A DNA stretch of 64,000 nucleotides from Eledone cirrhosa (GCA_964016885.1 OZ024741.1:240436001-240500000), one strand, 5' to 3'; positions 11,405 through 43,431 are shown, counted from the first letter of the stretch. Numbers and translations are program-made. Notes: generated by a model not told the origin, from the letters alone.

Positions 11405-11603
11405 ATAACGAAGGAATTGTGGTAAGGAACCAGATCGACCATAACGCACCAGAGTACTCAATACTTAGGGTAGTAGAGTGGGAAATAGGAAAAAGTATGA
11501 CTCCGATGGCATACCTCAAGCCGTTTCGACGGCTATTTCTGGAGTCCAGAAATAGCCGTCGAAACGGCTTGAGCTCTGCCGTCGGGGTCATACTTTTTCC
11601 TAT
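11405..11603 (-). mobile_element. Fold-back retroelement fragment (family H1) carrying the 3' half of a hammerhead ribozyme
   Basis: Inverted repeat 11485-11603 centred at ~11544, flanked by (TA)n. Plus arm reads gccgtc-GAAA-CGGC-ttgagctct-GCCG-TC-ggggtcatac. Homologous copies at 13851-13988 and 18521-18586. Confidence 0.75.
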
Positions 11604-11844
11604 GTATATATATATATGTGTGTATATATATATGTATATATATATATGTGTGTGTGTATATATATATATATATATATATATATAGACACACACATATATA
11701 TAGTGGAGAAAAGGAGTAAAGTTCCATACAAATGAAAGGTTATAGGTAAAAAGTAAAAGTGAAAAAGCACAGATATATTTAAAGATTATTTTTTTCTTTA
11801 ATCTAACAAAATGAATAACTTTATAATAGACATTAAGTGGATTC

Positions 11845-12095
11845 AAATTTGATCAAATATTACCAGTTTCAATTGATTTATCAAATATTAAAAAATGTTT
11901 CTCATATTCTGTGAGCGGTTAGAAGGTATGTGAATTTTCTGTCAAAATTTCTTCTTATATAAAGAACATATATAAGAAGAAAGTTGACAGAAAATTCCCA
12001 TATTGTCTAACTGCTCACAGAATATGAGAACAAACTTTTAAAATAATTGATAAGATTGATATATCAATTTAAACTGGTAATATTTGACAAAATTT
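11845..12095. repeat. Degenerate inverted repeat (~120-bp arms) centred near 11965
   Basis: tcaaatattaccagttt ... ttctcatattctgtgagc ... ttcttcttatata is mirrored by tataagaagaa ... gctcacagaatatgagaa ... aaactggtaatatttga. Confidence 0.85.
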
Positions 12096-13850
12096 ATTTC
12101 TTAATACTCTGTAGTTTCATCTGTGTACTCACAGGATCATCAGACAAGATTATATATATGTGTGTGTGAAAAGTAAACGAAAAACATGACAACAAACAAT
12201 GCAATACAGATATATATTAGTTTAACGTTTGATATTGTAGGAAAATATTCTTAATGTTCTGGATGCTAGTCATTAATCAGAAGGTAGAAGAAACATAGAG
12301 AAGATTGAGAAGAAGAAATGGGAAAAAGGTTTTTCTTTAGAAAAAAATATGTGCGCTTAGTCACCCATTAGATATAAATATATATATACAGAGAGAGAGA
12401 GAGAGAGAGAGAGAGAGAGAGAGAGAGAGAGAGAGAGAGAGAGAGAGGGAGAGAGAGAGAGAGAGAGACAATGGGTATTCAATGCATATAAGTAGATAAG
12501 TTGATTATGAGTGGCATTGAGGTTTTACCGTCAGATACTGAAGTCAGCTACAGGTGGGATTTGAAAGTCACTGTCAACAGTTTCCTAATAATAAATATGT
12601 AGATATAAATTTAAAACGACTTAGTTTTAATAAACCATTGCAATACAAATGAGTCTATACATATGAAAATAAAGGTTTCTGATTTAAGCACAAGGAATGC
12701 TACCTTTAAATTAACAGTTCCTTATATTTTGAGTAAAATACTCCTTACCAAAGGAAAAATATTTAGGAATAATCAGAGAGTGGAATGCTGTCCCCAAATT
12801 ATTACAGAATCGATGTTTACTTCTATTTTCTGATGGTTCTTAAATATGTTTTTCCTTCACCAAAGATGTTTTAACTGAAATATAAGGAACTATTAAATAT
12901 TTCCAAGCTAGCATTCTGAGTCTCTTGTTTTTTCTTTCTTTTTCTTCATTTTACTTTTTTTCTTTTTACTCCCCTTTCTTTCTTTCTTCCCCCTTTCTGG
13001 TACTGCTAACTCTATATATAGCTGCATTTGTATTGTAGCGGCTTCTTTAAACCAATTTGTTTTTCATATGTTATGCTTCAAGCAAACTTTAAAACCTCTC
13101 TCTCTCTCCACACACACATATATGTAATATATATATACACACATATATATATATTTCATCATCACCATCTAAATCTACTATTCCATTCTGGTTTGGATTG
13201 GATGTCAGGATCCAAGTTTAGTTTTTATTCACAGTTTTTGCTGCCCTCCTAAATGCATCAGGGGACAATAGCTTGCTTATAAACTCCAACTTTATTTGCA
13301 TGATTTCTATAGATTAATACCCATCTTACCATCAGCCACTCTACAAAGTTGACTGGGAGCAATTCATCATGCCACCAGTATGCACATACATTCCTGTTTG
13401 TATAATAAATATGTTTCTGTGTGTATGCGTGTGTGTTTTCACTCTTAAACAAGATATTCCATGATTCTTTATGAAAATCAAATATATAGAAAGCAGCCAC
13501 TTTTCTTCTAATAAAATAAATTTTTATGATCTATTCACTAGGATTGAGAGCTCATTCAGGTATTGTTTGTTTTAAATACTATAGTATTTTAAACACATTC
13601 TAACACATATAGCTCTCTCTCTCTCTGTAGGATAAAGTTATATCTGTATATATATATACTGAGTGGGTAACTGAGACTGCACCAATGTGTATATAAATAT
13701 ACACTTGTTTTGATATGTAGGCATGTAAATAGCCATACTCTACTATCGAGCACTAGTATCGAGCACTCTGTTGAGTAATAGTCTTACTAGTTTAAAACTG
13801 GTACTATCCTTATATATATATATATATATATATATATATATATATATATA

Positions 13851-13988
13851 TAACGAAGGAAATGTGGTAAGGAACCAGGTGGACCATATAATGCACCAAA
13901 GTACTCAATACTTAGGGTAGTAGAGTGGGTAATAGGAACAAGTAAGACCCCGACGGCTGAGCTCAAGCCGTTTCGACGGCTAATTCTA
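13851..13988 (-). mobile_element. Second copy of family H1 (hammerhead 3' half), inserted in (TA)n
   Basis: Close match to 11406-11540 (taacgaagg...tactcaatacttagggtagtagagtggg...gagctcaagccgtttcgacggct). Confidence 0.8.
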
Positions 13989-14798
13989 TATATATTTATA
14001 TATAGTTTTGCGAGGTTTTTGATATGAAATCGTGTGTCGAAACAAATATTGTTATACTTGGGGAGGGTCATATTTGTGTAATAATATTGCCAGAATTAAT
14101 AACAGAACACACTCACTGTGAGTGTGTTCAATTTCTGCAGATGGTATCATTGCATCTCTTTTCTGTCATATTTAGCTTCTATGTAAACGTTAAGTGTATT
14201 ATTTTAATGTGTGAGTGTGTAGAGTTTAAATATTCATTTATTATGGCTAAGTGGTGAGCCTTGTTCCTCTGGAGTCTAATTTGCCCACTTGCTGGATCAT
14301 CTGATGATGTTTTCTTATGAATAAAACAGTTCTGTAGAAGTCATGTTCCCCTCTGTTCCCTCTCTCTCTGCCCCCCTCTCTCTCTATCTATCCATATGTG
14401 TATATATATATATATAGAGAGAGAGAGAGTGAGAGTTTAGGATGAAGTGGCAGTCATTAGAACATCAGAAAGAATGCTCTATAATATTCATACTGGCTCT
14501 GGGTTCTCTCTCTATTTAAATCCCATTGTGGTCAACTTTGCTTTTCATGATTGTTGGTCGAAAATACTCATGTAGGAGTTATAACGAAAAAATAATTTAA
14601 TCGAATAACAAATGTTTTGATGATCCAAAATGGAGAAAGCATGTTATAAAGATCCTTTCTATATATATACCAGGTGTGCTTTTCAAACCCTTTTTTTTAT
14701 CATATATCCTTATATATATATATCCGGGAGCTTCCAACAGTAATGGTTGCATCTCTTAAGGATATGTCAATATTTATTTATAAATCAGATCTATATTA

Positions 14799-14863
14799 TA
14801 TTTTATCTGATGAAAGCATACCATAATTTAACTTGGTGTCCTTGAAATATGTATAATGAAATA
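14799..14863 (+). ncRNA. Minimal type I hammerhead ribozyme motif (family H2)
   Basis: Stem I tattttat/atgaaata; CTGATGA at 14807; stem II aagcatacca/tggtgtcctt; GAAA at 14844; near-palindromic TATGTA; UA cleavage dinucleotide at 14854-14855. Confidence 0.75.
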
Positions 14864-41349: not shown

Positions 41350-42206
41350 TCTATATATTAATTTCAACAATGTCATTATTCCGTGTGTCATAATTTTCGA
41401 TTATCATTGGTTCATAGGTTTCAAACGACTCCGCCCACCTCAACGACGCCAAACTTAAATTAATATGCATAATGCCAATGAGGGAGTGAGAGGGGAGGGA
41501 GAGGCAAAGTGAACACTAAGTATATGTGTCAGTGTAGAGACATGTGTGTGTGTGATGTGTGTGGAAATAAGAGGGGAAGGAAAGCAATAACAATTAACTT
41601 CTGTGCGTGTGTATGTACGTGCGCGTATGTTTATGTGTGTGTGCTTGCGTGCAGCGTTCCACAGAAAGTAAAAACTATCAACATGTGTGCGTTTCCATGC
41701 GTGTATGTGTGTGTACGTGTGGCATCCCACAATCGCCATGCAGTTTATCTGTCTGTGTGCCTGTCTGTCAGTCTAACATACACAGAGTTGTGAAGGGAGT
41801 AAATAGGGACCTTTTTTTTCATTGACTGACATCTTTTATATTAATTATCTATATCTATATCTACATATAATATAAAAGATTGGAACTTCCATAATCCTTT
41901 TGATAAACGTGGAACAACCACGTCTATGCAATGATACACGTTTTACAGTCAGGCAGAAGATGAACCATCTCCTAGAGGTCACTATTCTAGGTGGGAGCAC
42001 CTAGAATTGTTCATATACTATGCACAAACGGTACAACGAAGAATCTGGTATATCTGGAAGATTTTTTTTACTGTTTTTTATATCACACAGACACCACGGA
42101 CTCGCCTCATACTGTAATCAGACAAACATCCAATACAGTCATTTTCTCTTTTACCTGTCTTCTCTTATCATCTGTTTAACCGGGCGAAGCTGGGTACATC
42201 AGCTAG
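41350..42206 (+). mobile_element. Non-autonomous Helitron, copy 2
   Basis: Starts A|TC (41350) and ends hairpin + CTAG|T (42206). Homologous to 16760-17906 but lacks the ~280-bp R/E-rich segment. Confidence 0.82.
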
Positions 42207-43005
42207 TATATATATATATATATATATATATATATATATATATATATATATGTACGTACATATGTGACGAATTGACAGTGTCATTAGAAAGTTTGATACA
42301 ATGATTTACAGTATCCATTTCAGCTCTCTGCACTTTCTGAATTCAAATCCTGCCAAGGTCAACTTTGCTTTTCATCCCTTTGAGGTTGATAAAAAAACCA
42401 CACCCTGTACTAGATCAATTTTTTTCTCTAAATCTCCTTTTCACTTTCTTCAATCTCCTTCTTGGGAAGAAACCAGCTGGGGAGGGGATGAACTCTGCCA
42501 GGTTGAAAATGTCCAAGACACCCCTACAACTCCATTAGGAATCCATCAACCCATCCATCCGTACATACATACCATAGGTATGACAAAACAAATGTCTTTG
42601 TAAATGGCCAAAAACATTTGTTAAAGTTAAAAGAAGTACAATTGTAATGTGAAGTAGCAATGCCCTCTCCTGAGGTGTGCAAAAATAACTAAAATATTAT
42701 CGACATCTGTCACATTATATATATATATATACATATAATATATATACATATATACATATATATACATATAATATATATATATGTATACATATATATATAT
42801 ACATATATACATATATATACATATAATATATATATATATACATATATATACATATAATATATATAATATATATATAAATATATATATAATATGTATATAT
42901 ATATTATATATATATATAATATGTATATATATAATATGTAAATATATATTATATATATATAATATGTAATATATAAGATCAAAAGATGGTTAAAAGAATT
43001 CCATG

Positions 43006-43076
43006 TATTTTATTATGCGCATTTCAAAAACAAATATCATCATGCAATAACATTTGTGTTTTCGTCAGATAAAATA
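43006..43076 (-). ncRNA. Minimal type I hammerhead ribozyme (H5, left arm)
   Basis: Reverse complement of the 43178-43248 motif with one stem II difference. Confidence 0.8.
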
Positions 43077-43177
43077 GGGAGACATGATATGAAGGTTAAA
43101 ACACACTTGTGAATAGTGCAGTTTTAAATCAACTGCACTATTCACAAGTGTTTTTTAACCTTCATATCATGTCTCCC

Positions 43178-43248
43178 TATTTTATCTGACGAAAACGCAA
43201 ATGTTATTGCATGATGATATTTGTTTTTGAAATGCGCATAATAAAATA
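43178..43248 (+). ncRNA. Minimal type I hammerhead ribozyme (H5, right arm)
   Basis: Perfect 8-bp stem I tattttat/ataaaata; CTGACGA at 43186; stem II gcaaatgttat/atgatatttgt; GAAA at 43229; palindromic TGCGCA; UA at 43239-43240. Confidence 0.85.
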
Positions 43249-43431
43249 CATGGAACTCTTTTAACCATCTTTTGATCTTATATATTATTATGTATACTCC
43301 AGTCCTACAAACTGTAGAGTGCTACTTATCCGATATCTGCATTGCTTTATTGTACTACAATAAAACTCACCTCCTACATATATATAATATGTATATATAT
43401 ATAATATATATATATATACATATATAATAAG

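Follow-up and report, generated by a model that had tools for sequence, protein, structure and literature searches.

Head-to-head ends of probable Hydra-type Penelope-like elements with hammerhead motifs in the genome of Eledone cirrhosa

The Hydra clade of Penelope-like elements (PLEs) is the described group that most resembles the fold-back insertions analysed here, which lie in a stretch of 64,000 nt of the Eledone cirrhosa genome (GCA_964016885.1, OZ024741.1:240436001-240500000; G000:C2:240436001-240500000 in our numbering, from an assembly of 3.0 Gb in 1796 contigs). This whole stretch is referred to as the window. The clade is defined by a CxCx5C linker, the lack of CCHH, CxxC/CxH near the C-terminus, RW(K/R) and DKT (PMC8557442). 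Its elements share with those studied here one open reading frame (ORF) for a reverse transcriptase (RT) and a GIY-YIG-type endonuclease at the C-terminus, the clade motifs, (TA)n targets and a 3' hammerhead, and for Penelope-13_HM the paper records an inverted copy with a 5' truncation (PMC8557442). Hydra-1_Obim from Octopus bimaculoides has both a (TA)n target and a hammerhead (PMC8557442 supplement), and Hydra elements with this combination, octopus included, are already published. The fold-back architecture is in print as well (PMC8557442, PMC3846280, PMC4209133), as are inverted 5' copies and one-sided tails for PLEs generally. Recently active Penelope-like families were described from Octopus vulgaris in a paper whose main text is silent on hammerheads and on Hydra (PMC13282606).

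Two further systems are close to the window elements. In Poseidon of Anolis carolinensis, RT begins at two fixed internal RNA sites that bound an optional tail, the target is AT-rich, the hammerhead lies upstream of the starts and the inserted copies span an uncut cleavage site, all of which is seen here too (PMC11167929). The purified Poseidon protein, a predicted dimer, cuts and extends both strands; it inserts uncleaved RNA, hammerhead cleavage is not needed, and catalytic mutants have no effect in vitro (PMC11167929). Meanwhile, the minimal type I hammerheads of metazoan PLEs resemble those described below in their short stem I, long stem II and palindromic stem III, in their occurrence as opposite-strand pairs 100-700 bp apart and in many families per genome, and in the presence of a U3-A8 covariant core, which is known from Schistosoma PLEs (PMC4209133). 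The origin of head-to-head PLE copies and one-sided tails is called open in PMC8557442 and PMC11167929.

The window contains five fold-back elements at 11.4, 15.8, 18.0, 19.8 and 43.0 kb (families f11, f15, f18, f19 and f43), as well as hammerhead units at 40.4 and 56.7 kb (f40 and f56). Judging from sequence, the five elements are almost certainly the 5'-truncated ends of five PLE families lying head to head in (TA)n. Our reading is that these ends come from Hydra-type families and were joined head to head after priming from both nicked strands; we give it a probability of about 0.8. What this adds to the published picture is the rule that exactly one arm of a pair carries a tail, evidence against fold-back, long tails and a very high density of motifs. 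A literature search found no quantification of the one-tail rule; subscription papers were mostly outside that search, and older PLE papers may describe the rule.

Parent elements and clade placement

Each arm was searched against its own genome with up to 40 loci scored for each, and the candidate counts of this first look are lower bounds: at least 1553 for f11, 2037 for f15, 14 for f18, 394 for f19 and 13 for f43. All five arm families are repeated in the genome, and their arms run on into RT and endonuclease ORFs. The arm sequence corresponds to the pseudo-long terminal repeat (pLTR) and the 3' untranslated region (UTR), both continuous with these ORFs elsewhere in the genome. The original prediction, made from the window sequence alone, had proposed several (TA)n-targeting, ribozyme-bearing retroelement families, and this extension by genome search bears it out.

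A cysteine-linker endonuclease located upstream of an f11 copy at locus L031 was used as the query for parent elements. The search with this endonuclease region gave 49,271 first-look candidates with open frames of up to 819 aa, whereas few extra families are given in the Hydra paper (PMC8557442). An open f11 ORF of 720 aa (L107:4376-6535) contains YRDD, IYQC...YIG and a C-terminal nuclease region, and has 2163 homologs, which are unnamed. The f11 copies at L109 and L112 have the layout pLTR-ORF-3'UTR-pLTR, with direct repeats of 477 bp that are 99% identical at L109; L188 (f15) shows the layout pLTR-ORF-pLTR, and inverted copies are found at L107, L110, L114 and L183. The five f11 ORF copies compared are 98.0-99.6% identical.

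Among 30 endonuclease-selected loci, the f11 end lies 3' of the ORF end in 26, mostly about 0.7 kb downstream. By the same criterion, the f15 end does so in 12 of 30, and f15 frames the ORF at L188. The remaining links are based on one to three loci for each family: f19 is continuous with an ORF at L185, f18 lies 1.1 kb downstream of the ORF end at L111 and L022, and f43 lies 1 kb downstream of it at L187, its UTR being confirmed at L181 and L182. A 1.8-kb extension of f18 at L008/L009 consisted of microsatellite only and was rejected. Families f15, f18, f19 and f43 each have an ORF of their own with 32-48% identity to the f11 protein.

The ORFs of all five families contain CxCx5C, CxxC and CxH, and CCHH is missing in all five. 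The N-terminus was recovered in three ORFs, which show RWK and DKT in f15 and RWR and DKT in f11 and f19. The Hydra-1_Obim protein could be aligned with that of f11 by eye, motif by motif, as a different family. These protein motifs and the by-eye comparison make membership of the Hydra clade highly probable for the five families. The flanks of the insertions (14 nt) were TA-rich on both sides in 95 of 120 head-to-head pairs and on one side in the remaining 25. Some features differ from the published members. The f11 repeat unit of about 3.5 kb, whose size is accounted for by a longer 3'UTR, does not match the 'generally <3 kb' of Hydra elements, which is a tendency and not a criterion (PMC8557442). 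The five hammerheads all differ from the motif given for Hydra-1_oBim, and across the families stem II measures 26-95 nt as against the short stems in the table of the same paper (PMC8557442).

Tails, junctions and the joining of the arms

Each family has two fixed 3' ends, spaced by 82 nt in f11, about 88 nt in f19, 82-91 nt in f43, 98 nt in f18 and 181 nt in f15. The sequence between them is the tail, which in read-through copies forms the leader that separates the start codon from the ribozyme. Among the 120 pairs, taken from all loci then collected, exactly one arm was tailed in 116, both arms in two and neither in two. The f11, f15 and f43 queries included the tail, which fixes one arm of the best matches and not its partner. 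For f18 and f19, where the queries lacked the tail, one tail was seen in 40 of 42 pairs. The same held for all nine long insertions that showed both ends among 30 ORF-selected loci (21 were without both ends). The tails are longer than those of Poseidon (82-181 nt compared with 30-40 nt), and their start sites are in the 5' leader, unlike those of Poseidon, which lie inside the ORF (PMC11167929). The pairing of two sites within one insertion is not addressed in the available text of PMC11167929.

The lengths of the arms separate the models further. The tail-less arm reached at least 10 nt further 5' than its tailed partner in 42 of the 116 one-tail pairs, with an excess of up to about 700 nt (L182); the tail-bearing arm was the longer in 25, and the arms were within 10 nt of each other in 49. 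In 13 pairs the arms overlapped by at most 15 nt. Since a fold-back copy must lie within the tail-bearing cDNA, these 42 and 13 pairs need two primings. A tail-less cDNA serving as the template could not be the source of a tail, and fold-back therefore cannot give the longer tail-less arms. One-long-one-short pairing (116/120) together with the non-overlapping pairs thus discriminates among the published models.

At the junctions, microhomology of at least 2 nt was present in 39 of 65 clean junctions (expected 23%) and of at least 3 nt in 20 of 65 (expected 10%). Counted from the tail end, the 5' ends of f11 are concentrated at 126-148 nt, in the neighbourhood of stem II's 3' strand and apical hairpin, and the same clustering was seen in most of 27 pairs from outside the f11 search. 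Beyond each of the seven readable start sites, the sequence goes on as TA or AT for 2-7 nt, the chance of at least 2 nt being 0.21 per site. The two arms of a pair shared subfamily alleles more often than shuffled pairs did (0.86 versus 0.60 in f11, 0.97 versus 0.66 in f18, 0.94 versus 0.54 in f19 and 0.82 versus 0.52 in f43); f15 has a single polymorphic site and is uninformative in this respect.

A series of steps that would produce such insertions is as follows. The endonuclease would nick both strands of (TA)n. One primer would pair with the distal RNA site through 2-7 UA-rich nucleotides and give the tail-bearing arm, while the other would anneal at the proximal site and give the tail-less arm. 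Both RTs would stop prematurely, in many cases at RNA hairpins, and microhomology-assisted end joining would connect the two cDNAs of the same sense. The RNA copied may be one molecule or two; allele concordance favours one, and the pair at L056 hints at two. Dual priming at two fixed RNA sites is, in our judgement, the probable origin of the head-to-head pairs. The outward orientation of the hammerheads follows simply from their place in the pLTR, close to the 3' end of either arm. The one-tail rule could have been left by an asymmetric PLE dimer acting as primer of both strands in one event, with one subunit per RNA site, for which we see the chances as even.

An alternative is that dual priming used two different RNAs, linked in a hammerhead dimer through their palindromic stem III. 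The stem is palindromic in every family according to the descriptor and the family alignments (f11 has a hairpin stem III). The predicted dimers were more stable than two monomers in all eight folded regions, as is partly expected of self-complementary RNA, and in the f43 pair at L056 the arms disagree at 5 polymorphic sites, including a boundary column. However, arms are mostly concordant for subfamily alleles, and a single RNA read at two sites explains the strict one-tail rule more simply. In addition, catalytic hammerhead mutants were harmless to insertion in vitro, in an assay that dimerisation lies outside (PMC11167929). We regard the use of two RNAs as doubtful.

Self-priming was proposed for the inverted junctions of PLEs (PMC3846280), and fold-back or template-switch priming was the mechanism put forward in the original prediction. 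In the fold-back scheme, a tailed first cDNA would fold on itself at a local inverted repeat and serve as its own template, after which the endonuclease would trim the product at the tail boundary. The shared alleles of the arms in four families, the enriched microhomology and the gathering of f11 junctions at the apical hairpin of stem II all suit it. Allele concordance, however, is equally expected from one RNA copied twice or from subfamilies active at different times. The 42 pairs with extra 5' sequence on the tail-less arm do not fit, and in the 13 pairs of minimal overlap neither arm copies the other. Fold-back is already contradicted as the sole mechanism, and we consider it unlikely as the explanation of these insertions.

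Several points weigh against our reading as Hydra-type elements primed from both target strands. The geometry of 74 of the 116 one-tail pairs fits fold-back equally well, and in f15 the tail-bearing arm was the longer in all seven one-tail pairs, possibly through query selection. The pairs were best matches rather than a random sample; they were deduplicated by junction sequence, and a few duplicates may remain. The one-tail rule is broken by 4 of the 120 pairs and by the 19.8-kb element of the window (f19), which has a tail on neither arm and fell outside the pair filter. Even with allele profiles, a blunt or overlapping join could not be assigned at 63 of 128 junctions; these profiles replaced a single-reference microhomology test that resolved 23 of 120 junctions. 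The start sites of Poseidon are not homologous to the cut DNA (PMC11167929), unlike the short TA matches of the sites here. The 720-aa ORF had no match in Pfam or the PDB, and RT and GIY-YIG were assigned by motifs and by the comparison by eye with the Hydra-1_Obim protein. As for the ribozymes, the minimum free energy (MFE) structures of the window monomers of f15, f40, f43 and f56 did not form the hammerhead. The usual G10.1-C11.1 pair, present in f11 and f15, is replaced by A-U in f19 and f43 and by G-U in f18, in which these three differ from the metazoan PLE hammerheads (PMC4209133). This pair is G-C or G-U in f40 and A/A in f56, and it varies in published Hydra motifs too (PMC8557442 supplement).

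A DNA transposon similar to a miniature inverted-repeat transposable element (MITE), or a palindromic non-autonomous unit moving whole with incidental motifs, would account for near-perfect inverted arms between TA flanks but has a negligible probability, since the arms continue into RT and endonuclease ORFs, which refutes the reading as terminal inverted repeats (TIRs) that the original prediction had named as fatal to itself, since outer ends are unequal and junctions and arm lengths vary from copy to copy instead of forming fixed symmetric TIRs, and since motifs are about 100-fold above shuffles in an independent sample.

Some observations on individual copies stand beside these results. 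In f11, the tail-bearing arms carried GGAG and their partners GGGG; this apparent two-template signal was dropped, as the query carried the variant and best-match selection can give rise to it. The predicted cleavage site of f11 is followed directly by a run of G whose length differs among the copies L026, L033, L037, L043 and L046; this could reflect slippage or else be a remnant of cleavage and ligation. At L175:1240-1500, a reversed f43 tail is joined directly to f19 sequence. This chimera was set aside, as it may have formed by nested insertion at the tail boundary, which is TA-rich, or by a joint insertion across the two families.

If the reading as an asymmetric dimer is true, it would explain the tandem, inverted and tail structures of PLEs and displace self-priming. 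The genome offers for such work many short independent insertion products together with near-identical open ORFs.

Hammerhead motifs and the units that carry them

The type I descriptor (core, stem II, GAAA, a 6-nt palindrome and UH) was composed after reading the original prediction. It found eight motifs in the window, at 14807 (+), 16150 (+), 18320 (+), 18152 (-), 19897 (-), 40383 (+), 43186 (+) and 43068 (-), against a mean of 0.02 and a maximum of 1 in 100 local dinucleotide shuffles. A wider descriptor gained the motif at 56682 (+) and lost that at 18152 (-), giving eight sites compared with none in 20 shuffles. An Rfam scan of the window returned no hammerhead among the best 150 of 307 matches, which were dominated by microsatellite and microRNA matches.

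For the genome, 20 stretches of 10 kb were taken at round positions outside the window, large chromosomes dominating. With the wider descriptor, these 200 kb contained 22 motifs, a few of which have long loops and are possibly due to chance, against a shuffled mean of 0.2 (about 100-fold). Ten of the 20 stretches had motifs, and 11 of the 22 motifs fell in two stretches. A further 18 BLAST matches to truncated f11 arms were present in the same sample in addition to the 22 motifs. By extrapolation from this 200-kb sample with clustered matches, the genome would hold roughly 3x10^5 motifs; published counts are 2,000-9,000 per genome, obtained with different descriptors (PMC4209133). The excess over shuffled sequence and the very high ribozyme density had both been anticipated. 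On the reading as an asymmetric dimer, the same burst would have left hammerhead motifs on the order of 300,000, which exceeds the count of 126,247 in the axolotl (PMC7229834). Counts for cephalopods were not found in the literature search, which left most subscription papers outside. Hydra-clade elements have so far comprised a few dozen families, and these results suggest that they can form one of the main repeat classes of a genome. Many of the short hairpin repeats in a genome of this sort could have been wrongly annotated as MITEs or short interspersed elements.

Intact cores were present in 37 of 43 aligned copies of f15, 27 of 32 of f18, 73 of 80 of f19, 23 of 26 of f43, 19 of 25 of f40 and 15 of 21 of f56, in family alignments where some rows may stem from overlapping loci. 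The f43 cores were CUGAUGA in 15 and CUGACGA in 8 of 26. Stem sequences are wholly different between families and yet paired in each. The core of f11 is a U3-A8 variant (UUGANAA in 55 of 70 longer copies, N being C, G, A or U), in which N7 varies freely and positions 3 and 8 covary. It is combined with a hairpin stem III of 4-5 bp, and for L109 a monomer fold with a three-way junction is predicted as the MFE structure, unlike the motifs in PMC4209133. Published minimal PLE hammerheads cleave weakly and chiefly as dimers (PMC4209133). The hammerheads here would presumably cut tandem precursor RNA, most of them as dimers via the palindromic stem III, and in these dead copies they would be passengers.

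All five predicted pairs of inverted arms were mapped in the window, and the hammerheads of these elements are all oriented outward from the centre, as had been claimed. In f11, the tail-bearing arm (pLTR end and 82-nt tail) lies at 11404-11543 (-) and the tail-less arm at 11543-11603 (+), with the head-to-head junction within the stem II loop region. The tail-bearing arm has the 3' half of the hammerhead only (3' strand of stem II, GAAA, hairpin stem III, UC, GGGG), as the original prediction had stated for this element, and the missing half is the U3-A8 core of the longer copies. Its inventory of f11 was incomplete: a solo tail-bearing copy at 13848-13987 (-) and a tail-less fragment in (TA)n beside the f18 element at 18518-18587 (-) had been overlooked.

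The f15 element consists of a tail-less arm at 15836-16070 (-), truncated inside stem II and hence without the 5' core, and a tail-bearing arm with a 181-nt tail at 16067-16581 (+), whose hammerhead has CCGAUGA at 16150, a 95-nt stem II, GAAA at 16252 and CAAUUG UA. The inverted arms 15836-16010 and 16227-16401 are 100% identical. In f18, the tail-bearing arm at 17964-18227 (-) has a 98-nt tail and a core at 18152, and the tail-less arm at 18245-18420 (+) has a CUGAAGA core at 18320 and a UAUAUA palindrome; the inverted arms 18052-18227 and 18245-18420 are 98% identical, and the junction has a 32-bp duplication at 18213-18278. Differences between the arms in the window copies of f15 and f18 are private to the window. 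The f19 element has a tail-less arm at 19796-19944 (-), with a core at 19897, and a partner arm at 19946-20013 (+) with an atypical end inside stem II. In f43, the tail-less arm lies at 42967-43133 (-), with a core at 43068, and the tail-bearing arm at 43131-43378 (+), with an 82-91-nt tail, a CUGACGA core at 43186 and a UGCGCA palindrome (inverted arms 42967-43123 and 43131-43287, 98% identity). The predicted cores were thus found in all four of the elements said to have them, the one at 15.8 kb having a full core on the right arm alone. The single layout with a short and a long arm applies to most elements and fails at 19.8 kb, which lacks a tail and whose right arm ends inside stem II.

All three predicted solo motifs were found. 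The one at 14.8 kb is a single tail-less f19 arm at 14721-14901 (+), 93% identical to the 19.8-kb family, with a core at 14807 (CUGAUGA...GAAA UAUGUA UA). The f40 unit at 40186-40561 (+) is a terminally redundant non-coding unit of about 335 bp with a core at 40383 and an AUCGAU palindrome. The f56 unit at 56578-56900 (+) is a non-coding unit of about 320 bp with an atypical hammerhead at 56682: A stands at either side of the base of stem II, the palindrome is 4 nt long (CATG), and the stem I of the window copy is decayed.

First-look candidates in the genome numbered at least 1875 for f40 and 1995 for f56. Both are 320-470-bp non-coding units whose downstream sequence recurs upstream. Terminal redundancy with a period of 300-393 bp was found in the window copy of f40 and in 7 of 19 other loci. 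For f56, the period was 371-481 bp and was seen in 4 of 19 further loci. Non-LTR (long terminal repeat) retrozymes are recognised as non-coding units of 150-450 bp, in tandem or permuted form, that contain a type I hammerhead. Redundant or tandem, with one type I hammerhead and in a PLE-containing genome, f40 and f56 resemble the animal retrozymes; they are unlike these in being mostly dispersed monomers, some of them head to head, and in having minimal hammerheads in place of canonical ones (PMC7229834). They may represent retrozyme-type units mobilised by PLE proteins. No link to a Hydra ORF was seen in 20 f40 and 20 f56 loci (other PLE clades were not searched), and no parent ORF was present within 1.5 kb.

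At L112:8300-9900, at least three near-identical tandem units of 466 bp contain CUGAUGA...GAAA CUAG UA and are about 70% like f56; this array appears young and retrozyme-like, and its motif also occurs at L243 and L247. A further hammerhead family (CUGAAGA GGUCGC...GUGAC GAAA AGACUU) was seen at L013:1370-1420 and L062, directly upstream of an f18 copy.

Other repeats in the window

No PLE ORF was found in the window by tblastn (E<=1). The claim that it lacks any RT ORF did not hold, as ORFs of the long interspersed element (LINE) type are present. One of them, at 58834-61104 (+), has 756 codons from stop to stop with RVT_1 and a PHD finger, and we take it to be RTE-like by resemblance. An older inverted copy lies back to back with it at about 57400-58838 (-), with 74% identity over 868 nt. 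LINE-type fragments with RT and zf-RVT at 52916-54439 are presumably L1/Tx1-like. Diverged copies of a repeat of about 850-1100 bp at 16770-17900 and 41360-42200 end with CCGGGCGAAGCTGGGTAC..AGCTAG followed by (TA)n, which we assume to be a Helitron-like 3' end.

An inverted repeat at 51685-52192 (99%, 156-nt arms, 196-nt spacer) is without (TA)n flanks or a hammerhead motif. Its best other genomic matches are 68-89% and mostly partial, so that it represents an old repeat inverted either on the spot or recently. A satellite array of 13.4 kb at 26617-40011 is built of units of about 32 bp (95% matches), rising to a 64/288-bp period, and a tandem repeat at 277-2106 has 59 copies of a 31-bp unit (92% matches). 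A partial match to U2 small nuclear RNA at 24240-24297 had an E value of 0.013, below the gathering score.

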